IMG/VR virus record: IMGVR_UViG_3300045988_018446
Span: 1-5,681 of that record
Length of the DNA stretch: 5,681 nt
Strand: one strand, 5' to 3'
Source: a virus
Part shown: positions 78 to 5,681 of the stretch, piece after piece
Numbering within the stretch: the stretch's first letter is position 1
How the letters are laid out: each line of letters opens with the position of its first letter
Translations under genes and position numbers: made by a program
Notes under the pieces: model-generated
The model's input: only the letters and a program-made list of their open reading frames with translations
What the model was told of the DNA's origin: nothing
Database searches by the model: none

Positions 78-395
78 TTTGTAGATTTCGCCTGTTTCTG
101 TGTCTTGTGTCGGTACATGGTCATCGTCATAAGTTAGTGTAATAAACCATGTGCTTTCTTTGTCGTATCCGTATGCTTCTAGCTCCATCCGCGTCGCCCA
201 GTCTTTGCGTTTGCGCAGTCTGCACCCGGTACATTGTCCACATGGTATCAACATTACATCTTTGCGGTACATTAAATTTTCGTACGTCATTTTGGTCTTG
301 TGTATCTCGTTAAAAGAGGCGAGTGAGTATACTCGCCCACTCGCCTCTCTGTCATGAGGTACATAAAACCGGATTAGCGGTTTATTGCATCCCAT
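1..395 (-). CDS. VP4: Replication initiator VP4 (HUH superfamily-I Rep), N-terminal segment. The full CDS is 78..395 joined to 4980..5681, giving 339 aa.
   Basis: I translated the minus strand by hand. The ATG is at 393..395 and the nearest upstream in-frame stop is at 405..407. The product reads MGCNKPLIRFYVPHDREASGRVYSLASFNEIHKTKMTYENLMYRKDVMLIPCGQCTGCRLRKRKDWATRMELEAYGYDKESTWFITLTYDDDHVPTQDTETGEIYKGGINIWKGTSERPRTTQT and continues into LSVEDTQLF at 5627. It carries the CxxCxxC motif (222..242) and Rep motif I FITLTYDD (123..146), both typical of gokushovirus VP4. The ATG overlaps the VP2 stop as TAATG. Confidence 0.9.
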   Translation of the reverse strand, partial: MGCNKPLIRFYVPHDREASGRVYSLASFNEIHKTKMTYENLMYRKDVMLIPCGQCTGCRLRKRKDWATRMELEAYGYDKESTWFITLTYDDDHVPTQDTETGEIYKGGINIWKGTSERPRTTQTLSVEDTQ

Positions 396-1240
396 TACTT
401 TAGTTTATTCCTCCAAAATTCTATGTTTTTGTTTCCGACAAAGTCTCTTCCGGGTTTGTATTGGAGCTCGTCTTTGGATGGTTTTCTTCCTGCTCCACCG
501 GTTTTGGGCGTTAGATTGTTCAGGTCGTTGAAGACGTCCTTGAATGCATTAAACGCTTTGTCTGCGCTTGTGTGTGACCAGCTTGTAGCGTCTCCAACTG
601 CTTGTGCCGCGTTGTACCAGTTACTTTCGCTTTTGCTCCATGTGTTGTTGTGGTTTTGACTTACTCCGAGAGCGCTTGCGGTCGCTGCACTGCTGCTTGC
701 GAGGCCCATACTTGCCCCGCTGATAGTTCCCTGACTGCCACCCGGTGTACTTGCTCCGCCTTGCTGGTATGCTAAGATTGGGTTGATGCCGGCTTTGCGC
801 ATATCGTCTACTGCTCTTTGATATGCTGTGTTACTCATCTGCTCTTGCCAAGCTCTGTTTTTGGCTGCTTCCGCGCTGTTGTAGGACATTGCCGCGTTGT
901 TGCTTATCTGGTTATATACACCCTGAGTGATTGCCGCCATGGTGTTATAGCCCATTTGTTCGAACATGCTTTTGCGGTTAAACTTCTGCTGGCTTTGCAT
1001 ATTGCTTTGAATTGCCCCTAGCATACTGTTCCAGTCTTGCAGGTTTTGTTCTCGGTTTACGCCGCTGGCGGCGCTGCTGTAGCCGCCTCCCTGGCTTGAG
1101 CTTTCGTTGTGCTGTTGGCTTCCTCCGTTGCTCTCCATCAGATTCCCGCCCAGGAATTTGTTTATGAGTCCTCCGGCGATTGTTGGGAGTATTTGTTTGC
1201 CGATTCCGAGCAGTGCGCTGCCGATTGCTGCTAACGCCAT
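395..1240 (-). CDS. VP2: Minor capsid / DNA pilot protein VP2 (281 aa)
   Basis: The ATG is at 1238..1240 and the TAA at 395..397. The N-terminus is hydrophobic and Gly-rich (MALAAIGSALLGIGKQILPTIAGGLI). The middle is Q/S/N/G-rich low complexity. The block NTAYQRAVDDMRKAGINPILAY matches what I recognise from gokushovirus VP2 proteins. It sits immediately downstream of VP1. Confidence 0.8.
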   Translation of the reverse strand: MALAAIGSALLGIGKQILPTIAGGLINKFLGGNLMESNGGSQQHNESSSQGGGYSSAASGVNREQNLQDWNSMLGAIQSNMQSQQKFNRKSMFEQMGYNTMAAITQGVYNQISNNAAMSYNSAEAAKNRAWQEQMSNTAYQRAVDDMRKAGINPILAYQQGGASTPGGSQGTISGASMGLASSSAATASALGVSQNHNNTWSKSESNWYNAAQAVGDATSWSHTSADKAFNAFKDVFNDLNNLTPKTGGAGRKPSKDELQYKPGRDFVGNKNIEFWRNKLK

Positions 1241-1248
1241 AATAAAAT

Positions 1249-1271
1249 AGCCCGGGGTTTTGCCCCGGGCT
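1249..1271 (-). terminator. GC-rich hairpin between VP1 and VP2, probably a partial intrinsic terminator or attenuator
   Basis: Positions 1249..1257 (agcccgggg) pair perfectly with 1263..1271 (ccccgggct), giving a 9-bp stem with a 5-nt loop. On the minus-sense RNA the hairpin is followed by AUUUUAUU and then directly by the VP2 AUG. Confidence 0.6.
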
Positions 1272-1285
1272 TCCCCCTTTCCTGT

Positions 1286-2938
1286 TTAATGATGGTCGAC
1301 GAGCCCCGGAATGCTGTACATCGGCATAGGTCTCACGCTGGTGTTATCGATGACCGTGTCCATGATAAATTGAGGCTCGTTGTCTACGGCCAGAGTTCTC
1401 TGAATTTCGGAGTCTCCTTCTTTCATCCATGCCTGGCTTAAGCTCGGCGTTTCCGTGTAGTTGTCGCCGTAGTGCCAGCTGTCCAATGTCCCCGTTGCGT
1501 TCGAACGGAACTTGCCGCTGATGCGGTTAGGTTTCATTCGGTACTCTGCCCAAGCTTCCTGATAACCAAAGGCCTGTTCATCCGTTTTCGTGCCGGTGAG
1601 GTACAGCTCCTTTTTGAGAATCGCTTGCTCTCCCAGATTTGCGAAGACAGGGTAATAGAAATCCAGATTCGTTTTCCGACTCCACATCCGCTCGAGTCCC
1701 TGCTGGTAGGTATGGTCGTGCCGGATGCAGCACACTCCGATAACAAAGCCGTGCTCTTCGAAGCTCTTGGTGAACATACTCCCGTTGTATGGCGTGACGG
1801 ACACTGCTGCCGTGTTACCCTGCGGACTCTCTGCCGTCGTGCCACTGGTCTGGATGACCTGACTCATGTTGATGGTGATGCGTGTACCGCCCAGATACTC
1901 AGGAATTTGTACCGTCTTATCGCTGATTTTGGTGTGGAACAGCGAATAAATCATCTCGCGGTAACGGCTGCCTCCGCGTGCCAGCTGTTCGTAGTATTTT
2001 TGTACTTGAAATGCCTGTCGCAGCTGGTTGATGGTTACTCCGTTTAACTTGTCGAGTCTTGCGCCAAAGTATGCATTTCCGGTGTCTGATGTTCCAACTA
2101 TACCCATCGGCGGCTGATAACCTTGTATTCCGCTGATTGGCCCTACGGCATATAAGCCATTTTTTGGTGTTTCTCTATCCGGTGTTTTGTATGCCAGCAC
2201 CGGTGCATTGCCGCTCAGCGGAATTCTTACCGGTGCCCCCGCTTTCTGCGGAGAAGGCAGTGCGCTGGTGAAGTAGTCGTGGTATTTGTTGACCGGTAAA
2301 GGTCTGCCGCCTGTGTATGCGTTTTGGAGAATATACTCCAAATTCGGTGTTGCTGCGTCCATGCCCTTGGTTTCATCGTCCGTGTAGTTTACGGTTGCGT
2401 CTCCATCGCTGTTGACGGCCGGGTTGTCTACGTTCTGGTCTCTGAACCACTCCTGCCAAATCATGGCGTATGCTCTCATGGGCAGCGCGTTGATAGTGAA
2501 TGCCGTATCTTCTCCCTTGCTTACCTTGGTCGGAATGCCCATGTAGTCAAGGATGCTGCCCTCATAAGGTGCCGGTTTTTCTGCGGTGCCGGTTACTTTG
2601 ACCTGCGGAATGGTGTATTCTTGAGTCTGTGCCCACGGCCCCGTGTCGTTTTCGCCCATGAATCGTTTGAAGTTTTTCCATAGGATTCTGCACGGGACAT
2701 TAAAATAATAAATGTCCATGTGACAGTTATCCATAACCGGGAAGATAGGAGTTGTCATACGTATAATAGCGGCTTGGTCGATACTAAACGTGTCTCCCGG
2801 TAACACCTCGTCCACATAAAATGGGATGAGCTGTCCTGCATTGAGCGTCAGTTTGACATCTTGCCGCCGCTTGAATCGGCTTCGCGTAATGTCCAAGCGC
2901 GGGACTTGGTTAAATCCTGCGTCTTTGTTTCTGTTCAT
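1286..2938 (-). CDS. VP1: Major capsid protein VP1 (550 aa, Microviridae F-type capsid)
   Basis: The N-terminus FNQVPRLDITRSRFKRRQDVKLTLNAGQLIPFYVDEVLPGDTF is the hallmark of the microvirus major capsid N-terminus. The length is typical of Gokushovirinae-type VP1. GGAGG lies 7 nt upstream of the ATG (2936..2938). The ATG overlaps the VP3 stop as ATGA. Confidence 0.95.
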   Translation of the reverse strand: MNRNKDAGFNQVPRLDITRSRFKRRQDVKLTLNAGQLIPFYVDEVLPGDTFSIDQAAIIRMTTPIFPVMDNCHMDIYYFNVPCRILWKNFKRFMGENDTGPWAQTQEYTIPQVKVTGTAEKPAPYEGSILDYMGIPTKVSKGEDTAFTINALPMRAYAMIWQEWFRDQNVDNPAVNSDGDATVNYTDDETKGMDAATPNLEYILQNAYTGGRPLPVNKYHDYFTSALPSPQKAGAPVRIPLSGNAPVLAYKTPDRETPKNGLYAVGPISGIQGYQPPMGIVGTSDTGNAYFGARLDKLNGVTINQLRQAFQVQKYYEQLARGGSRYREMIYSLFHTKISDKTVQIPEYLGGTRITINMSQVIQTSGTTAESPQGNTAAVSVTPYNGSMFTKSFEEHGFVIGVCCIRHDHTYQQGLERMWSRKTNLDFYYPVFANLGEQAILKKELYLTGTKTDEQAFGYQEAWAEYRMKPNRISGKFRSNATGTLDSWHYGDNYTETPSLSQAWMKEGDSEIQRTLAVDNEPQFIMDTVIDNTSVRPMPMYSIPGLVDHH

Positions 2939-3411
2939 TCAGTCGCCTCCGTTTTCGGTTCCTCGGGTTTTTCTTCCTGATAGATTCCCAGATTTTTTGC
3001 CCACTCGACCGTTCCAAACGATGCAATAAATTTGTCGACATCGTTGTCAAATTTGAGCTTTATTTCTTTCGGCACTTCGTCCCAGATTTGCTCTGCTCGC
3101 ATCATGATGTTCTGGAGTTCGGCCAGATTTTGTGGTGCTTCGGCGAAGTCTTGGATGCCGCCCCCGATGTCCGGTTTGATACGTGCTGCAATGTCCGGGT
3201 CGATGCTTGCTTGTCGGATGATGTTTTCTAGCTTGGTTTCCTCGAGATAGCTGTCGATTTCGGCCTGTTGGTCAATGGTCTGGTCGAGCCTCAGCACTTT
3301 TTCGCCTTTTTCATTGCGTTCCCAGAGGTACGTGCGCCTTACGGTTTCCCCGGCCTCGGTTGGTTTTGCTGTGGCGGTCTGCCGCCAGTTACTTACTGAG
3401 CGATACGCCAT
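2935..3411 (-). CDS. VP3: Internal scaffolding protein VP3-like (158 aa from the ATG at 3411; the ORF is open up to a TTG at 3477)
   Basis: The protein is acidic and helical (…IDSYLEETKLENIIRQASIDPD…EQIWDEVPKEIKLKFDNDVDKFIASFG…) and sits directly upstream of VP1, coupled to it. I prefer the ATG at 3409..3411 because AAGGAG lies about 10 nt upstream. The longer track start at 3477 is a TTG with no Shine-Dalgarno (SD) sequence and would overlap the upstream gene by 89 nt. Confidence 0.65.
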   Translation of the reverse strand: MAYRSVSNWRQTATAKPTEAGETVRRTYLWERNEKGEKVLRLDQTIDQQAEIDSYLEETKLENIIRQASIDPDIAARIKPDIGGGIQDFAEAPQNLAELQNIMMRAEQIWDEVPKEIKLKFDNDVDKFIASFGTVEWAKNLGIYQEEKPEEPKTEATE

Positions 3412-3625
3412 CGTAAATGTTCTCCTTTGCCTCGGCGAACTCGCCGGTTTTTTCGTCGAACTTTGCCAGCCTGACAAGCCGGTAGTCGCTCGGCGTCTTG
3501 CTCATCATGTTGTGTTCGTCGGTGAGCGCAATTTTAAAATTACGCTCCGCTACTTTGTCTTCGCGTTCGGTAAAAATGGTGATATAGCCCATCACACAGC
3601 TATCGAAAATTCCGTATACGTTCAT
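3389..3625 (-). CDS. VP5: Small non-structural protein, VP5-like (78 aa)
   Basis: The ATG is at 3623..3625 and is preceded by AAAGAGGAAAAC. The pattern VYGIFDSCVMGY…AERNF…PSDYRLVRLAKFDEKTGEF resembles, from my memory, the conserved gokushovirus ORF5/VP5 pattern (Y/F-x-V/I-F-D … A-x-R-x-F … P-x-D-F/Y … G-x-F-D). This was not verified by a search. Confidence 0.55.
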   Translation of the reverse strand: MNVYGIFDSCVMGYITIFTEREDKVAERNFKIALTDEHNMMSKTPSDYRLVRLAKFDEKTGEFAEAKENIYDGVSLSK

Positions 3626-3635
3626 GTTTTCCTCT

Positions 3636-3734
3636 TTATTTGAACCAGTCTTTGATGATGTTGATTGCGTTAATGACGAGGTAGAACCCCGCTGCGAGAA
3701 ATGCCATAGTCATGCTTGCGAATACAGCGCTCAC
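3636..3734 (-). CDS. Small hydrophobic single-pass membrane peptide (32 aa from the GTG, or 25 aa from the ATG at 3713). It falls below the ORF-track size cut-off.
   Basis: My hand translation gives (V/M)SAVFASMTMAFLAAGFYLVINAINIIKDWFK followed by a stop. The GTG at 3732..3734 overlaps the TGA of the upstream basic ORF as GTGA. The TAA at 3636..3638 lies 10 nt before the VP5-like ATG. The ORF fills an otherwise unexplained gap in a tightly packed one-strand gene string. Confidence 0.45.
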   Translation of the reverse strand: MSAVFASMTMAFLAAGFYLVINAINIIKDWFK

Positions 3735-3850
3735 AGGCGGATTCCCCCTCTCATTGCGCCGCTGCCAAGGTTGATGGCCTTGGTTTTTCGTGCGGTCTTG
3801 TTGTAAATTTTTGCGTCCTTGGATTTGCGGACTTTACTCCTCTTTCCCAT
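3731..3850 (-). CDS. VP8: Small highly basic DNA-binding/packaging protein (39 aa), analogous to phiX174 J and gokushovirus ORF8/VP8. It falls below the ORF-track size cut-off.
   Basis: My hand translation gives MGKRSKVRKSKDAKIYNKTARKTKAINLGSGAMRGGIRL followed by a stop. It has 13 Lys/Arg and 1 acidic residue. As I recall, the C-terminal MRGGIRL is characteristic of small basic proteins in gokushovirus genomes. The ATG at 3848..3850 overlaps the 3' end of the 73-aa ORF by 17 nt, and a GAAGGGAAA purine tract lies upstream. Confidence 0.6.
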   Translation of the reverse strand: MGKRSKVRKSKDAKIYNKTARKTKAINLGSGAMRGGIRL

Positions 3851-4064: not shown

Positions 4065-4211
4065 TTACTCCTCGGGCTTGTTGCCCTCTACTGCGTGATA
4101 AATCTTGTCCAGCATAGCCAAGATTTTGCGGATGTTGTTAAACAGCGCGTCGATTTCCTCGATAGACAGAGCAGACACCTTCTTTTTTAAGTTATTTTGT
4201 ATAAATGGCAT
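4065..4211 (-). CDS. Hypothetical small protein (48 aa). It falls below the ORF-track size cut-off.
   Basis: My hand translation gives MPFIQNNLKKKVSALSIEEIDALFNNIRKILAMLDKIYHAVEGNKPEE followed by a stop. The ATG at 4209..4211 is the first start after an in-frame TAG. Only a weak GGAAAG lies upstream. The stop is 9 nt before the next gene start. Support comes only from strand, packing and a non-random helical sequence. Confidence 0.4.
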   Translation of the reverse strand: MPFIQNNLKKKVSALSIEEIDALFNNIRKILAMLDKIYHAVEGNKPEE

Positions 4212-4254
4212 TGTAAAACAGCACTTTCCGCTGTCTAACTATTTATGTTGTATC

Positions 4255-4283
4255 AAAAAAAACAGGGCTTGTCAAGCCCTGTT
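4255..4283 (-). terminator. Rho-independent terminator on the minus strand, downstream of the Cys-rich ORF
   Basis: Positions 4261..4270 (aacagggctt) pair perfectly with 4274..4283 (aagccctgtt) around a 3-nt loop. On the minus-sense RNA the GC-rich stem is followed by a run of 8 U (plus-strand A run at 4255..4262). The hairpin starts 6 nt after the TAA at 4290..4292. Confidence 0.8.
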
Positions 4284-4289
4284 CTGGAA

Positions 4290-4466
4290 TTATTTTTCTC
4301 TTTTGTTTAGTTCGTCTTTTGCTAGCGCGTGGATGTATTCGCAACGGTAGCTTATGTCGCTACATGGGCATTTTTCGCAATCGTAGTTGCAGTGCTTGAA
4401 TTTGTAGTCCATCCATCTCAAGGTCTCTGTGTCAAGGTCTTTGTACTTTGCTCTTAAAGTTTCCAT
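4290..4466 (-). CDS. Small Cys-rich protein (58 aa), a putative metal-binding protein of unknown function. It falls below the ORF-track size cut-off.
   Basis: My hand translation gives METLRAKYKDLDTETLRWMDYKFKHCNYDCEKCPCSDISYRCEYIHALAKDELNKREK followed by a stop. The cysteine pattern is H-C-x3-C-x2-C-x-C-x6-C-x3-H. The ATG at 4464..4466 is preceded by AAGGGGA with about 8 nt spacing. A consensus promoter lies upstream and a terminator downstream. Confidence 0.65.
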   Translation of the reverse strand: METLRAKYKDLDTETLRWMDYKFKHCNYDCEKCPCSDISYRCEYIHALAKDELNKREK

Positions 4467-4492
4467 AGTCTTTATCCCCTTTCTTTAATTGG

Positions 4493-4521
4493 ATTATACC
4501 ACAACTTTGCTTATTTGTCAA
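4493..4521 (-). promoter_or_regulatory. Consensus sigma70-type promoter with an extended -10 element
   Basis: The minus-sense sequence reads ctcTTGACAaataagcaaagttgTGgTATAATcc. The -35 TTGACA is at 4516..4521 and the -10 TATAAT at 4493..4498. The spacer is exactly 17 nt and TGn lies immediately upstream of the -10. An A/T-rich tract sits upstream of the -35. The Cys-rich ORF's ATG is about 27 nt downstream of the -10. Confidence 0.8.
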
Positions 4522-4644
4522 GAGGTTTTTGGAAAAAAGTTTAGATGCACTATGCCTTGAATGTCATGCGGTAGGCGCGGTGCGCCGTGCGAAGAGCATG
4601 ACGAGACCTTCCGGTTTCGCTCGCCGGACGGCCTTTAATTCGAT

Positions 4645-4653
4645 TTTTCCACA
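4645..4653 (+). promoter_or_regulatory. DnaA-box match TTTTCCACA (fits the relaxed consensus TTWTNCACA)
   Basis: This is a direct read of the sequence. It differs by one base from the canonical TTATCCACA. It has the same orientation as the other two boxes and overlaps the first CACTTTCAA repeat. Confidence 0.5.
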
Positions 4654-4671
4654 CTTTCAACACTTTCAACA
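4652..4671 (+). repeat. Tandem CACTTTCAA x2 (+CA). This is iteron pair 1, containing TTCAACA at 4656..4662 and 4665..4671.
   Basis: This is a direct read: cactttcaa|cactttcaa|ca. The 11-mer CACTTTCAACA recurs at 4717..4727. Confidence 0.85.
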
Positions 4672-4673
4672 GG

Positions 4674-4682
4674 TTTTCCACG
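4674..4682 (+). promoter_or_regulatory. DnaA-box-like TTTTCCACG (two mismatches to TTATCCACA)
   Basis: This is a direct read. It has the same orientation as the box at 4645 and lies 29 nt downstream of it. Confidence 0.35.
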
Positions 4683-4688
4683 AAAAGT

Positions 4689-4708
4689 TGCACAAATGGT
4701 TTTGTGCA
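4689..4708. other. Perfect 8-bp inverted repeat or hairpin, TGCACAAA-tggt-TTTGTGCA
   Basis: Positions 4689..4696 are the reverse complement of 4701..4708, with a 4-nt loop. It lies between the second and third DnaA-box matches. Confidence 0.7.
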
Positions 4709-4716
4709 TATTGCTA

Positions 4717-4736
4717 CACTTTCAACAATTCAACAA
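4717..4736 (+). repeat. Iteron pair 2: CACTTTCAACA followed by a tandem TTCAACAA (TTCAACA at 4721..4727 and 4729..4735)
   Basis: This is a direct read. The 10-mer CAACAAGTTA (4731..4740) overlaps this pair and runs into the perfect DnaA box. The same 10-mer is repeated at 4840..4849. Confidence 0.85.
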
Positions 4737-4737
4737 G

Positions 4738-4746
4738 TTATCCACA
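4738..4746 (+). promoter_or_regulatory. Perfect DnaA box TTATCCACA
   Basis: This is an exact 9/9 match to the canonical high-affinity DnaA box and the only perfect copy in the window. It lies in the non-coding region. Confidence 0.6.
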
Positions 4747-4805
4747 AAAGTATCAACATCAAAATAATCCAAAAAATATCGTTCTAAGGATAAAAATTCA
4801 TGGTA

Positions 4806-4820
4806 TTCAACATTTCAACA
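4806..4820 (+). repeat. Iteron pair 3: TTCAACA at 4806..4812 and 4814..4820
   Basis: This is a direct read (attcaacatttcaaca). All six TTCAACA copies share one orientation and occur as pairs spaced 8 to 9 nt apart. Confidence 0.8.
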
Positions 4821-4824
4821 CTCC

Positions 4825-4869
4825 CTACTATTACGACTACAACAAGTTAATAATAAATAATAATAATAT
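4825..4869. repeat. Trinucleotide-periodic tract (CTA CTA TTA CGA CTA CAA CAA) running into a pure A/T block (TAA)3-A-(TAA)3-TAT. This is a candidate DNA-unwinding element.
   Basis: This is a direct read. Positions 4825..4845 are seven triplets that all end in A. Positions 4847..4869 are 23 consecutive A/T bases built from TAA units. Confidence 0.7.
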
Positions 4870-4910
4870 CACGCACGTGCGTGCGCGATTACGTGCGCGC
4901 GCGTGCGTGT
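4870..4910. repeat. Alternating purine-pyrimidine GC-rich tract that is both Z-DNA-prone and an imperfect palindrome forming an 18-bp hairpin
   Basis: Positions 4870..4887 (18 nt) and 4890..4910 (21 nt) alternate Py/Pu perfectly, with one phase break at 4888..4889. Positions 4870..4887 pair with 4892..4909 as 15 Watson-Crick pairs plus 3 G-T pairs on the plus strand, with loop atta. ACGCACGTGCGT (4871..4882) is a perfect 12-nt palindrome. Confidence 0.85.
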
Positions 4911-4914
4911 CAAT

Positions 4915-4967
4915 ATGAAATAAAATACTCAGCCAAGTATATATACTTGATAGTTACTTGGCTGAGT
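4915..4967 (-). terminator. Hairpin plus U-rich tail 12 nt downstream of the VP4 stop. It is the likely terminator of the long minus-strand operon.
   Basis: Positions 4927..4939 (actcagccaagta) pair perfectly with 4955..4967 (tacttggctgagt), giving a 13-bp stem and a 15-nt loop. On the minus-sense RNA the hairpin is followed by AUUUUAUUUCAU. Nested inside is a perfect 16-nt palindrome, caagtatatatacttg (4934..4949), which offers an alternative fold. Confidence 0.6.
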
Positions 4968-4979
4968 GACACCAAAGTG

Positions 4980-5681
4980 TCAAAATACACCTTTGGCTTT
5001 GCTCATCTTCTTGGACATGGATGCTTCCTTGTCCTTTAGCTGCTCTGCGTATGACTTATCTGTTTCCGCGTTTCTTTCGATTAGGGACGCAATGGCTTTT
5101 TCTTGCCGATACTGTTTGATTCTCCACGCTTTTTCAGGGTTCTCCGCTTCCAGTTTTCGCCAGTAGTATTCCGGTATGGCTGCTCTCTTGCCGTTGGTAA
5201 GCTGTATGTATCCCTGTTGCCAGAGTCGCTCTTGATGGTCTTGAAACCATTGGTCTCCGAGTCCCGGCTTTCGGCTCATTGTGCAAAATGGAGGTATTAA
5301 ACCCATTTTTTGGTAACGCTTTTTGTCGTTGCCGTATAGTTTCTTTGTCACGTACCCTGCAACATAATTATATGTCTCCGGTGTTGCCTGTGCTATGTCA
5401 ACTGCACCTTGTCCCCAGATTTTGACCAGCTTATCACTTGTGTAGTGGCCGTGTCTGGATAGCTTGTGTATAGGTTTTAAGTCGTCAGGATGCCATCCGT
5501 ATAGTATCATGTGATAGTGTGGTCTCGCTGTGTTGTCTCCATACTCTCCGGCTAAAAAGTATCTCAGTGGCTCTTTGACGGCCTTTCTTAGCCTTTTAAT
5601 AAAGAGTTGGGTATCCTCCACGCTCAATGTTTGCGTCGTTCTCGGACGCTCTGAGGTGCCTTTCCATATATTTATGCCGCC
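4980..5681 (-). CDS. VP4: Replication initiator VP4, C-terminal segment (233 aa plus stop). It continues across the circular junction.
   Basis: The frame stays open from 5681 down to the TGA at 4980..4982. The HUH motif PHYHMILYG has its His codons at 5517..5519 and 5511..5513. The two-tyrosine motif YVAGYVTKK has Tyr codons at 5364..5366 and 5352..5354, with the YxxxY spacing seen in phiX174 protein A. The track's start at 5627 is an internal TTG (Leu). Confidence 0.9.
   Translation of the reverse strand, partial: GGINIWKGTSERPRTTQTLSVEDTQLFIKRLRKAVKEPLRYFLAGEYGDNTARPHYHMILYGWHPDDLKPIHKLSRHGHYTSDKLVKIWGQGAVDIAQATPETYNYVAGYVTKKLYGNDKKRYQKMGLIPPFCTMSRKPGLGDQWFQDHQERLWQQGYIQLTNGKRAAIPEYYWRKLEAENPEKAWRIKQYRQEKAIASLIERNAETDKSYAEQLKDKEASMSKKMSKAKGVF
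5605..5681. repeat. Terminal direct repeat, copy 2. This is redundant sequence and should be trimmed to circularise.
   Basis: It is identical to 1..77. The Rep reading frame continues in frame from 5681 into position 78. Confidence 0.95.

Follow-up and report, generated by a model that had tools for sequence, protein, structure and literature searches.

A Cysteine-Rich Mini-Protein Gene in a Predicted Exchangeable Expression Slot of a Gut Gokushovirus

Introduction

Microviruses are among the most abundant phages of the gut, and they have been described as nearly devoid of accessory genes and genetically isolated (PMC9239249). The locus considered here raises the question of what a small cysteine-rich gene, framed by a strong promoter sequence and a terminator-like hairpin, is doing in such a genome, and whether these signals belong to the gene or to the place in which it sits. 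We analyzed the whole stretch of DNA, hereafter "the window" (5,681 nt; IMG/VR record IMGVR_UViG_3300045988_018446). A previous sequence-only reading of it had regarded the locus as a self-contained, moron-like cassette, which would be transcribed ahead of all other genes.

In this study, we propose that the locus is a slot with fixed expression signals and exchangeable content. We hold with high confidence to its genetic architecture, i.e., a promoter (P1), a Shine-Dalgarno (SD) sequence, the 58-aa open reading frame (ORF58), a terminator that contains a second promoter (P2), and a variable slot. The role of the protein, which may be stabilised by a metal and bind some target of the host or of its defences, is put forward tentatively. 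When architecture and protein role are blended into one account, we consider it the best overall explanation and a reasonably probable one.

The Genome and the Position of the Slot

The window is a complete gut gokushovirus genome. The circular molecule is 5,604 nt long, and positions 5605-5681 of the window duplicate positions 1-77. The genome belongs to the Gokushovirinae (Microviridae), as it is circular, lies within 4.5-6 kb, and encodes an F-type capsid protein (VP1), a pilot protein (VP2), a scaffold of the Chlamydia-phage type (VP3), the replication protein Rep (VP4), and VP5; profile searches in the window matched VP1 (Phage_F, 3e-141), VP3 (Chlamy_scaf), VP5 (Phage_ORF5), Rep, and the pilot protein. 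Neither an integrase nor any other lysogeny signal was found in the window by means of the ORF list and the profile search, and an Rfam search over the whole window gave no match.

Because the minus strand carries all the genes, the cassette is read from 4543 to 4247. ORF58 (4290..4466, minus strand) leads after a non-coding stretch of approximately 450 nt downstream of rep, and is thus the first ORF past the non-coding region, as the sequence-only reading had stated. The non-coding stretch at 4525-4665 does not fold significantly as a whole (z = -1.3). From its sequence features, the region 4543..4210, between the post-rep non-coding region and the morphogenetic operon, is a predicted accessory-gene expression slot. 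The GC content of ORF58 (40.7%) lies below that of the genome (47.8%) and of the structural genes (50-51%), although low values are also seen in the adjoining small ORFs and in the non-coding region, and a gene of 177 nt is a small basis for comparison.

Expression Signals Upstream of ORF58

The sequence-only reading had described a perfect sigma70 promoter with a TGn motif and an A/T-rich upstream tract, and this description is accurate. Promoter P1 (4493..4521, minus strand) consists of TTGACA (4521..4516), a 17-nt spacer, and the extended -10 element TGgTATAAT (4501..4493), a match of 12/12 when scored, like all promoter calls in this study, against the E. coli/B. subtilis consensus, which may not be that of the host. 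It is the only 12/12 site in the window, where 0.01 sites with at most one mismatch are expected by chance. Directly upstream of the -35 box lies a UP-element-like A/T tract, TAAACTTTTTTCCAAAAA (4526..4543, minus strand), which has two mismatches to the UP consensus AAAWWTWTTTTNNAAAA and stands at the correct distance from the -35 box (0.21 sites expected window-wide); its TTTTTTCAAAAA motif is retained in relatives. P1-like sites recur at the corresponding place in 38 of the 57 clade genomes, and 18 of these sites are 12/12 matches.

The SD sequence AGAAAGGGGA (4475..4484, minus strand) stands 9 nt ahead of the ATG at 4466, again in agreement with the earlier description. It is complementary to the 3' end of Bacillus-type 16S rRNA, which we take to be CCUCCUUUCU, and its AGAAAG is retained before unrelated ORFs in relatives. 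The predicted product of P1 is a monocistronic mRNA of approximately 230 nt.

ORF58 and Its Protein Family

ORF58 encodes a 58-aa Cys4 mini-protein with the arrangement C26-x3-C30-x2-C33-x8-C42; the five cysteines and two histidines are as quoted by the sequence-only reading. The same reading recognized no homolog of it. We found 57 homologous clusters, some of them in dsDNA phages, which make up a phage-only family of 46-93 aa with a conserved C-x3-C-x2-C-x8-C and identities down to 27%. C26, C30, and C42 are invariant in 57 sequences, and C33 does not vary in a 16-sequence alignment and is kept in at least 90% of the 57. The C-x3-C-x2-C spacing that had been pointed out earlier is therefore the conserved core of the family; neither of the two histidines is conserved.

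Compared with homologues of 62-64% identity, ORF58 has a dN/dS of 0.1-0.24, with synonymous sites saturated. On the basis of this ratio and of the conserved cysteines in the 57 clusters, ORF58 is judged to be a real coding gene under purifying selection. The opposite idea, that ORF58 is untranslated and that the unit from P1 to the terminator is a small regulatory RNA, is hardly credible. Although the transcript is predicted to be short, insulated, and highly expressed, and the ORF is small, this idea conflicts with the strong SD sequence, with the dN/dS values, with a protein family that keeps its cysteines across three phage types, and with the lack of an Rfam match.

The protein matches no named family. 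ORF58 gave no match in Pfam (even at E = 1), PHROGs, or NCBIfam. The PADLOC profiles of known anti-phage defence proteins did not match any of four Cys4 family members. The sole match in a PDB sequence search was a Kunitz-type seed protein at E = 0.7, which explains the spurious nr name "trypsin inhibitor". Similarly, the JGI name "polyferredoxin" for one family member, P0010, is a motif artefact. In the AF2 model of ORF58 there are three helices (pLDDT 73-78), the second and third of which are joined by a Cys-rich loop of low confidence (pLDDT 54-66). Foldseek searches with both AF2 models against the PDB retrieved only generic helical hairpins (E > 2), and in BFVD the one meaningful match, under the mistaken name "Hui1", was to a homologue from another Microviridae MAG.

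With four conserved cysteines within 17 residues, ORF58 resembles Cys4 zinc knuckles or ribbons and ferredoxin-type Fe-S motifs, and its C-x3-C-x2-C-P-C looks like a reversed ferredoxin motif. It differs from all of these in that there is no sequence or fold match and in that it is predicted to be helical, not a beta-ribbon. The C-x3-C-x2-C spacing is also that of radical SAM enzymes; these have a partial TIM barrel of roughly 200 aa or more, whereas ORF58 has 58 aa and no Pfam or NCBIfam match, and it is too small to be an enzyme.

Variable Content of the Slot

Between the window and the nearest genomes, homology ends at approximately 4284 and restarts at approximately 4479, and unrelated ORFs lie between the conserved signals. 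Even the closest relatives (82-94% nucleotide identity) have other ORFs in the slot, with P1, the terminator/P2 unit, and the flanks conserved, and the nearest GenBank relatives have other ORFs or none at the position of the Cys4 gene. Across 58 clade genomes, the slot contains zero, one, or two ORFs from at least six unrelated families: family A (Cys4) in 12 genomes, B in 11 plus three remnants, C in nine, D in 13 plus three remnants, E in two, and F in four, with eight genomes empty; because approximately 50 of the 58 genomes come from a single IMG/VR data set (3300045988), the census cannot be taken as unbiased. For families B to F, Pfam and PHROG searches gave no match. We dropped the idea that all slot genes are common to dsDNA phages: family B, the most common of the alternative occupants, occurs only in microviruses, and such sharing is seen for the Cys4 family alone.

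The view of ORF58 as a moron-like, sporadic accessory gene with expression signals of its own is supported by these data, as 12 of the 58 genomes have the Cys4 gene and the nearest relatives lack it though their flanks are conserved. In other words, presence and absence at one position are seen among close relatives, and a promoter and a factor-independent terminator flank the gene at the sequence level. The cassette is not self-contained, however. Because the promoter and the terminator are conserved around unrelated ORFs, these signals belong to the slot and do not travel with ORF58.

A Terminator That Contains the Next Promoter

The intrinsic terminator (4255..4285, minus strand), identified by sequence and fold, is a 12-pair hairpin at 4285..4259 with the loop GAC, followed by T8 (4262..4255). 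Its 10-bp core begins 6 nt past the stop codon, and the 10-bp GC hairpin with a U8 tail of the sequence-only reading is thus confirmed. The hairpin folds at -16.4 kcal/mol (z = -4.8), a stability that none of 200 shuffles equals. In 22 relatives, 95.5% of cells are paired and seven of ten pairs have compensatory changes, a result reached by 0 of 500 shuffles; part of this covariation is due to a one-pair indel between two stem types. ORF58 had also been thought to be the only gene with its own terminator, and here the earlier reading needs correction, since terminator-like hairpins also follow VP1 (1271..1249, minus strand; dG -20.3) and rep (4967..4927, minus strand; dG -20.7, z -4.7). Another hairpin, at 350..310, was considered as a VP2 terminator and ruled out: the rep frame opens at ATG 392, which places the hairpin inside rep.

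Overlapping the ORF58 terminator is promoter P2 (4247..4275, minus strand): TTGACA (4275..4270), 17 nt, and TGa-TACAAC (4252..4247). Its -35 box is at the apex of the hairpin, the 17-nt spacer consists of the 3' arm of the hairpin and the T-tract, and the -10-like hexamer comes next. In the clade, the apex hexamer is TTGAC(A/G); within TTGAC, the TTG and the C do not vary and the A is at least 90% conserved, with TTGCC as the single exception. In the -10 hexamer, T1, A2, and A4 are invariant, and the spacing is fixed at 17 nt. A further candidate promoter, P3 (TAGACA, 16 nt, TACAAT; 4210..4237, minus strand; 10/12), lies inside the conserved block GTTAGACAGCGGAAAGTGCTGTTTTACAAT, which also folds as a small hairpin (dG -10.5, z -2.4). 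It should be mentioned that the -10 box of P2 in the window itself is weak and lacks the usual final T, and that P3 may be the working restart promoter here.

Promoter-coupled terminators in bacteria, known from chromosomes with mapped RNA ends, have the -35 box in the stem-loop, the T-tract before the -10 box, and an interval of less than 35 bp from the termination site to the start site (Fletcher et al. 2026, bioRxiv 10.64898/2026.08.19.745784). In the window, the T-tract is directly before the -10 box, itself the weak TACAAC, and the -35 box is within the stem-loop DNA; the ORF58 terminator is, by its sequence, promoter-coupled. The element also shares with those of Fletcher et al. its position between tandem genes, with a predicted gap of approximately 15 bp between the two sites. 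It differs from them in being a phage element known from sequence prediction alone, and in that two -35 boxes double as end-points of cassette deletion. Because of this arrangement of apex, spacer, and hexamer, transcription from ORF48 to VP1 could restart at P2/P3 without read-through.

The sequence-only reading had found no second promoter and had arrived at a different model: P1 is the sole promoter on the coding strand, the hairpin attenuates, the structural and replication genes are expressed by read-through, and ORF58 far out-expresses them. Indeed, no other site in the window comes close to P1 as a promoter match, and the TACAAC of P2 is a poor -10 box; moreover, family D genomes have P1 only, with the terminator absent, which suggests that P1 can drive the operon. 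On the contrary, the TTGAC-17 nt-(-10-like) site is conserved clade-wide at the terminator, the 10/12 site P3 follows in the window genome, and at least five genomes (L078, L079, L081, L097, and L099) have lost P1 and keep the terminator/P2 unit alone, to which four genomes with P1/P2 hybrid promoters must be added. Natural variants thus persist with P2 alone or with P1 alone, and a T8 terminator of -16 kcal/mol would be a costly arrangement as the only gate to the capsid genes. We regard the read-through model as improbable, and transcription restarting at P2/P3 is preferred.

A second objection is that the hairpin may be mainly an element of the viral single strand (a complementary-strand origin, a packaging signal, or a Rep signal), its likeness to a terminator and promoter being incidental. 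In its favour, the ssDNA genome has mRNA polarity, the stem shows covariation around a nearly invariant apex TTGAC, and there is a precedent in the filamentous phages, whose minus-strand origins are hairpins that mimic promoters. However, every family D genome and the hybrids, together approximately half of the clade, lack the hairpin, which therefore is not essential for replication. Where present, it is always followed by a T-run and lies exactly at the end of an ORF, and its TTGAC is mostly in the loop, not in a promoter-mimicking duplex. This alternative seems very unlikely, and we retain the promoter-coupled terminator.

Direct Repeats and Loss of the Cassette

The two -35 boxes lie in copies of an 8-nt direct repeat, CTTGACAA. 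The left copy (4515..4522, minus strand) spans the -35 box of P1 and the right copy (4269..4276, minus strand) spans that of P2. The four P1/P2 hybrid promoters (L056, L073, L076, and L106) show the result of a deletion between the two copies. Loss of the cassette proceeds by deletion between the repeats and leaves one hybrid promoter behind.

The Cys4 Family in Other Phages and the Probable Host

The Cys4 family is found in the same slot of distant gokushoviruses (L116, L118, and L124), in phi29-like podoviruses (L113-115, L120, L122, and L123), and in two temperate phages (L110 and L121), where it has its own extended -10 promoter and terminator. In the podoviruses and temperate phages, the gene is located in early or accessory regions. 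Identity between gokushovirus and dsDNA phage members is up to 66-74%; the 74% is that of P0022 (gokushovirus) and P0052, the latter probably podoviral, to judge by the size of its contig and its similarity to P0051. In pig gokushoviruses and L116, the Cys4 gene has P1 and no terminator, so that insulation is not a property of the gene family.

In tBLASTn searches, ORF58, P0036, and P0051 matched only four uncultured pig microviruses among 50,697 GenBank phages, and hence no cultured phage in this set carries the family. Neither the Cys4 profile nor VP1 found a match in 185,579 species genomes, which thus gave no host or prophage lead. The podoviruses with a Cys4 gene have Holin_SPP1, and their nearest cultured relatives are Amedibacillus and Clostridium phages. 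Together with the SD complementarity, these observations point to a bacterium of the Bacillota as the host.

Possible Role of the Protein

We speculate that the ORF58 gene is dispensable and is strongly expressed, either constitutively or early, and that its product is a helical hairpin clamped by a putative Cys4 metal site (Zn or an Fe-S cluster). Its most likely mode of action would be stoichiometric binding of a component of the host or of its defences, in the service of counter-defence or host takeover. As to counter-defence, nothing specific points there, with no match in PADLOC, Pfam, PHROG, PDB, or Foldseek searches.

One alternative is that ORF58 is a small metal-binding transcription regulator of the phage or host (anti-sigma-like or RNAP-binding), which tunes P1/P2 or redirects host RNA polymerase. 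ORF58 is the first gene from the strongest promoter, the Cys4 gene is the very first left-end gene in some phi29-like genomes, and C-x3-C-x2-C resembles the H-x3-C-x2-C of zinc anti-sigma (ZAS) domains. Nevertheless, Pfam gave no match, to zf-HC2 or to any other domain, even at E = 1, the position equivalent to the ZAS histidine is a cysteine, and the neighbouring His25 is not conserved; ORF58 is not a ZAS domain. The protein is neutral to acidic (pI 4.5-6.7) and for this reason is not a typical DNA binder, and close relatives that keep the same promoters dispense with it. A regulatory role is accordingly considered unlikely.

In another alternative, ORF58 and the other slot ORFs guard the infected cell against competing phages (superinfection exclusion or defence) instead of countering host defences. 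The Cys4 members of temperate phages occupy classical moron positions beside ANT/Bro and Mrr-type genes, and exclusion determinants are on record in microviruses, though they reportedly form part of the pilot protein (Kirchberger et al. 2021, cited in PMC9239249). The lack of an integrase or lysogeny signal in the window, the lack of a PADLOC match, and the occurrence of the family in strictly lytic-looking phi29-like phages make this alternative unlikely as well. Binding of a host or defence target, tentative as it is, remains our preferred role.

Significance and Comparison with Known Systems

The locus provides a defined slot, predicted to be strongly expressed, with differing small genes in closely related gokushoviruses, one occupant of which is common to phi29-like and temperate dsDNA phages. 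It also offers what seems to be a natural phage example of a terminator that is the next promoter. The six or more uncharacterised families (55-65 aa) are a screening set for counter-defence, takeover, or exclusion activity, and the slot is a natural site for cargo insertion in gokushovirus genomes. A wider reading is that the slot is a cassette-exchange site of the Microviridae, at which small conflict genes are gained, lost, and swapped by way of homology arms provided by the -35 boxes in the repeats together with the promoter and terminator that are conserved, and that the Cys4 family is a broad counter-defence or takeover factor of Bacillota phages, moving between ssDNA (Monodnaviria) and dsDNA (Duplodnaviria) phages. 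This is doubtful; if true, it would contradict the view that microviruses almost never swap genes outside their own lineages.

The morons of lambdoid and other tailed phages are extra genes between conserved genes (Juhala et al. 2000; Hendrix et al. 2000). ORF58 is like them in being an extra, apparently dispensable gene among conserved genes, absent in close relatives, flanked by a promoter and an intrinsic terminator, and possibly in its lower GC content. Unlike in morons, the promoter and terminator stay with the locus, the ORF being the sole part exchanged, and the terminator also serves as the promoter that follows. The carrier, moreover, is a microvirus whose 5.6-kb ssDNA genome shows no sign of lysogeny.

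Anti-CRISPR loci have a fixed position in Mu-like Pseudomonas phages. By analogy, the slot resembles such anti-defence hot spots in its fixed syntenic position, its dedicated promoter, and its small, unrelated, unannotated ORFs of fast turnover; it differs in that there is no Aca-like regulator, it holds at most two genes, and its occupants are known from sequence alone. PhiX174, also a microvirus, has the promoters PA, PB, and PD and leaky terminators, and resembles the present genome in that gene dosage is set, with no temporal control, by several sigma-70 promoters together with hairpin terminators. It belongs to another subfamily, however, and has no insulated accessory unit or exchangeable ORFs.

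Finally, hypervariable regions of microviruses confer superinfection exclusion, within the pilot protein VP2 of temperate lineages according to the cited account (Kirchberger et al. 2021, PMC8285946, cited in PMC9239249). Those regions and the slot described here are both fast-diversifying, non-core determinants of the Microviridae that probably mediate conflict; as far as that account describes them, the difference is that the present determinants occupy a separate gene slot, between rep and VP5.

Genome organization and signals of the ORF58 cassette

The genome in the window is circular and complete at 5,604 nt (its ends overlap by 77 nt), and every gene lies on the minus strand. Profiles from Pfam and PHROGs identify VP1 (2938..1286; Phage_F, E = 3e-141), VP3 (3477..2935; Chlamy_scaf), VP5 (3625..3389; Phage_ORF5), the VP2 pilot protein (1240..395), and the 339-aa VP4/Rep, which starts at ATG 392, crosses the junction, and ends at 4980. 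By megablast, the genome belongs to a clade of gokushoviruses from human, monkey, and pig faeces, and the closest GenBank genomes show 83-89% identity across 71-90% of the genome. The last part of a 39-aa ORF with a highly basic product, phrog_10695 (3731-3850), overlaps a 32-aa hydrophobic peptide, MSAVFASMTMAFLAAGFYLVINAINIIKDWFK (3636-3734); the ORF could encode a DNA-condensing protein, and the peptide could act in the membrane or in lysis.

The sequence-only reading described a self-contained cassette of promoter, Shine-Dalgarno sequence (SD), 58-aa ORF with five Cys and two His, and hairpin with T-run, and all of these elements were found, on the minus strand. The promoter, P1 (TTGACA 4521..4516, 17-nt spacer, TGgTATAAT 4501..4493), is the sole 12/12 site within the window, where the chance expectation for a site of this type with at most one mismatch is 0.01. 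Immediately 5' of it, and at the right distance, 4543..4526 matches the UP-element consensus, which reportedly goes back to Estrem et al. in 1998, with two mismatches. The SD, AGAAAGGGGA (4484..4475), lies 9 nt 5' of the ATG of ORF58 (4466..4290), and the terminator hairpin (4285..4259) has 12 pairs followed by T8 (dG -16.4 kcal/mol, z = -4.8; 0/200 shuffles equally stable). Terminator-like hairpins are also located 3' of VP1 (1271..1249, minus strand; dG -20.3) and directly after the rep stop, where a 13-bp stem-loop followed by AUUUUAUUU (4967..4927, minus strand; dG -20.7, z = -4.7) is the probable rep terminator, its long loop having caused the terminator scan to pass it over. Contrary to what had been proposed, other genes besides ORF58 thus also have a terminator-like hairpin; the U8 of ORF58 is the most canonical terminator tract.

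A variable slot between rep and the morphogenetic operon

In blastn comparisons with six close relatives, homology ends at about 4239-4284 and picks up again at about 4479-4645. KT264788, MG945657, and KT264790 keep the promoter and terminator with unrelated ORFs between them (one of about 61-65 aa in each of the first two, and two of about 61 and 56 aa in the third). KT264789 has a deletion in this slot, and in MG945780 and PV067914, which lack the terminator, a different ORF again, or what remains of it, is present.

For a wider census, 59 IMG/VR genomes (58 distinct, most of the clade coming from a single data set) were gathered via VP5 and compared from the rep stop to the VP5 start, an interval of 977-1,643 nt. 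Six families of occupants were recognized: family A, the Cys4 family to which ORF58 belongs (12/58 genomes); B, MRKPRL...FDW (11/58, plus three remnants); C, MLHxYEIR... (9/58); D, ...LDPENWVEQ (13/58, plus three remnants); E (2/58); and F (4/58). The slot is empty in eight of the 58, and two-gene slots occur as C+A, F+B, F+D, and D+E. Families B to F have no match in Pfam or PHROG. A family C gene and a Cys4 gene recur as an adjoining pair with abutting stop and start in three genomes (L075, L080, and L092), with a remnant in a fourth (L018), which suggests a functional pairing.

A P1-like site is found at the same position in 38/57 genomes, with a 12/12 match in 18. Because P1 and the terminator are kept around unrelated ORFs, the expression signals belong to the locus, and what lies between them is interchangeable. 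The sequence-only reading held that absence of the ORF from close relatives with conserved flanks would refute the proposal. Such absence is indeed found, but this pattern shows a gene that is apparently dispensable and exchangeable, not spurious.

A terminator predicted to double as a promoter

The slot is closed by a hairpin and T-run in 31/58 genomes. The stem varies widely (CAGGGCTT/AAGCCCTG, GGGGACTT/AAGTCCTC, GCGAGATT/AATCTCTC, and GAGGCTT/AAGCCTC are examples), and the apex reads TTGAC(A/G), in which TTG and C are invariant and A is conserved in at least 90% (TTGCC occurs once). Pairing is maintained in 95.5% of cells, with both-side changes at 7/10 pairs among 22 distinct sequences, covariation that is partly due to a one-pair indel separating two stem types. 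Neither the pairing nor the covariation score was reached by any of 500 shuffles, and in slid controls pairing fell to 38-78%.

Exactly 17 nt past the TTGACA lies a hexamer with invariant T1, A2, and A4 (TATACT, TATAAC, TACAAC, TATAAT, TACAAT, or TATAAA), often preceded by TGn. This clade-conserved promoter, P2, is weak in the window genome (TTGACA 4275..4270, 17 nt, TGa-TACAAC 4252..4247, minus strand), where it was passed over because the promoter scan demands T at position six of the -10 element. A further candidate, P3 (TAGACA, 16 nt, TACAAT; 4237..4210, minus strand), matches at 10/12 positions.

Four genomes (L056, L073, L076, and L106) show one promoter, a hybrid that has the upstream context and -35 of P1 and the spacer and -10 of P2. 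The 8-nt repeat CTTGACAA occurs twice in the window (4522..4515 and 4276..4269), and the hybrid would be the expected outcome of a deletion between two such repeats. In five others (L078, L079, L081, L097, and L099), P1 is gone and the terminator/P2 unit alone is retained, with a family B ORF remnant or none, and family D genomes have P1 and lack both the terminator and P2. A circulating genome can therefore have either promoter alone, comparative evidence for a P2 that probably functions in the clade and for a downstream operon that may be independent of read-through. The "moron-like" label given to the cassette holds in the main. The transcription model derived from it, with no second promoter and the other genes expressed by read-through, is not supported: P2 is conserved, some genomes have P2 only, and P3 follows in this one.

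The Cys4 family

A first search found five close ORF58 clusters (78-90% identity), and tBLASTn found homologues in four pig gokushoviruses (62-64% identity), against which dN/dS is 0.11-0.24 with dS >1.2. Judged by its conservation, ORF58 is a genuine gene. With a profile search of 1.8 billion representatives and another search based on a word index, the family grew to 57 clusters, whose members are 46-93 aa long. L16, C26, C30, and C42 are invariant across the 57 aligned sequences, and Y21, C33, P34, C35, E52, L53, and R56 are conserved in at least 90%; C33 is invariant in a 16-sequence alignment, and the core is thus C-x3-C-x2-C-x8-C. His25 and His46 are variable, and Cys35 is substituted in several members (by Asn in the pig viruses). 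The proteins are neutral to acidic (pI 4.5-6.7), and AlphaFold2 predicts three helices (pLDDT 73 and 78 for the models), with a Cys-rich loop of lower confidence joining helices 2 and 3. Neither ORF58 nor its family matched named families, solved structures, or defence models; the names "trypsin inhibitor", "Hui1", and "polyferredoxin" are database artefacts arising from Cys-rich similarity.

In distant gokushoviruses with members 35-50% identical (L116, L118, and L124), the Cys4 gene likewise lies between rep and VP5; in the pig viruses and L116 it has P1 and no terminator. Non-microvirus contigs carry 11/57 clusters. In phi29-like podoviruses of 14-16 kb (markers DNA_pol_B_2, Phi29_MCP, Podovirus_Gp16, Phage_connector, and Holin_SPP1), the gene lies at the left end of the early operon, or close to it, or right behind the polymerase gene: it comes first at the left end in contig L120 (211-384) and after the DNA polymerase gene in L122 (3765-3923) and L123 (3335-3496). 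From these differing positions among related podoviruses, it is mobile within this group too. Temperate phages of 50-59 kb, which encode a serine recombinase, ANT/Bro, and DnaB, have the gene under an extended -10 promoter of its own, and it ends, with one further small ORF, in a strong terminator; such a unit is a textbook moron. Directly 3' of this unit, two related temperate phages have about 1.8-1.9 kb without a called gene (L110, 6344-8135; L121, 6162-8028).

P0022 of a gokushovirus shares 74% identity with P0052 and about 66% (manual count) with podoviral P0051; P0052 is probably also podoviral, from the size of its contig and its similarity to P0051. The protein of the clade genome L018 is 59% identical to P0036 of a temperate phage. 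The 134 clusters of family B all lie on contigs of up to 8 kb, mostly microvirus-sized, and none of the 134 on large phage contigs. According to Kirchberger et al. (PMC9239249), accessory genes are scarce in microviruses, gene exchange is rare, and the few links are due to small peptides of about 65 aa. The Cys4 family clearly exemplifies a link of this kind, one that reaches dsDNA phages.

A scan of 185,579 species genomes with the Cys4 profile and VP1 found no prophage or relative. Indirect signs point to a Bacillota host: promoters with a sigmaA-type consensus and TGn, long AGAAAGG-like SDs complementary to the 3' end of a Bacillus-like 16S, Holin_SPP1 in the gene-sharing podoviruses, and Amedibacillus and Clostridium phages as the closest cultured relatives of those podoviruses.

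Other elements

About 40 nt 5' of P1, 4563-4602 (minus strand GTCATGCTCTTCGCACGGCGCACCGCGCCTACCGCATGAC) contains a 7-bp inverted repeat around a GGCGC-ACC-GCGCC mini-hairpin. This element is near-invariant across the clade, distant gokushoviruses with little other DNA-level likeness included (4489-4657 is 82-86% identical in MG945135 and KT264798). It may serve as an origin, as a Rep site, or as a regulatory site. Folding of the surrounding region gives no significant structure (z = -1.3). The non-coding region also has iteron-like direct repeats, ACACTTTCAACA / TTCAACAnnTTnTCCAC (4643-4749 and 4806-4849), and gokushoviruses that are otherwise unrelated, KT264791 and KX513868 among them, are 83-86% identical over 4645-4759. 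At 4863-4916, a GC-rich alternating purine-pyrimidine palindrome, ACGCACGTGCGTGCGCG ... CGTGCGCGCGCGTGCGTG (25-nt arms, 76% complementary), lies between very AT-rich flanks; it gave rise to the sole Rfam match, a spurious one.

A very stable 15-bp hairpin at 310-350 (dG -30.4 kcal/mol, z = -6.3), with TATACT in its loop, is overlapped by a promoter-like 10/12 site (355..326) and is intragenic, since rep starts at ATG 392. The origin of phiX174 is located within gene A, and by this analogy the hairpin is a candidate origin.

After the slot, the ATG (4211) of the small ORF48 (4065-4211) is confined to the sub-group of the window genome and lies inside the P3 -10, in a conserved block (4195-4240). 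Relatives have a conserved peptide, ..LTLKEINALFNNIRKILAMLDKIYHAVEGNKPE, after a strong SD, AGGAGGTG, without an ATG; the sole in-frame start candidates are a GTG within the SD and a CTG 6 nt past it (4169..4167 here), and a non-canonical start is possible.

A possible mechanism and its known counterparts

The strong promoter, SD, conserved coding sequence, compensated terminator, coupled P2, exchangeability, and deletion end-points are shown at the sequence level. In the mechanism that we propose, P1 would fire constitutively on the double-stranded replicative form and give a short, abundant mRNA; T8 would halt most polymerases, and transcription would begin anew at P2 or P3 for ORF48 to VP1. 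The protein would be a helical hairpin clamped by a putative Cys4 metal centre and would most likely bind a conserved host or defence component, a reading based on its neutral to acidic pI, a size far too small for catalysis, and its early or accessory position in three unrelated phage types. Counter-defence or takeover is the role that we prefer, with low confidence, over two live rivals: superinfection exclusion and a role as a transcription factor.

The finding combines two known kinds of element, a moron or accessory hot spot and a promoter-coupled terminator, in a virus family believed to be free of such things, and the slot carries an uncharacterised family common to ssDNA and dsDNA phages. 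Promoter-coupled terminators were named in bacteria by Fletcher et al. (bioRxiv 10.64898/2026.08.19.745784), according to whom the dual-use sequences add to promoter activity and the coupled promoter modulates termination. The arrangement read here from the sequence is like theirs, with the -35 in the stem-loop, the T-tract as spacer, and the -10 directly after it.
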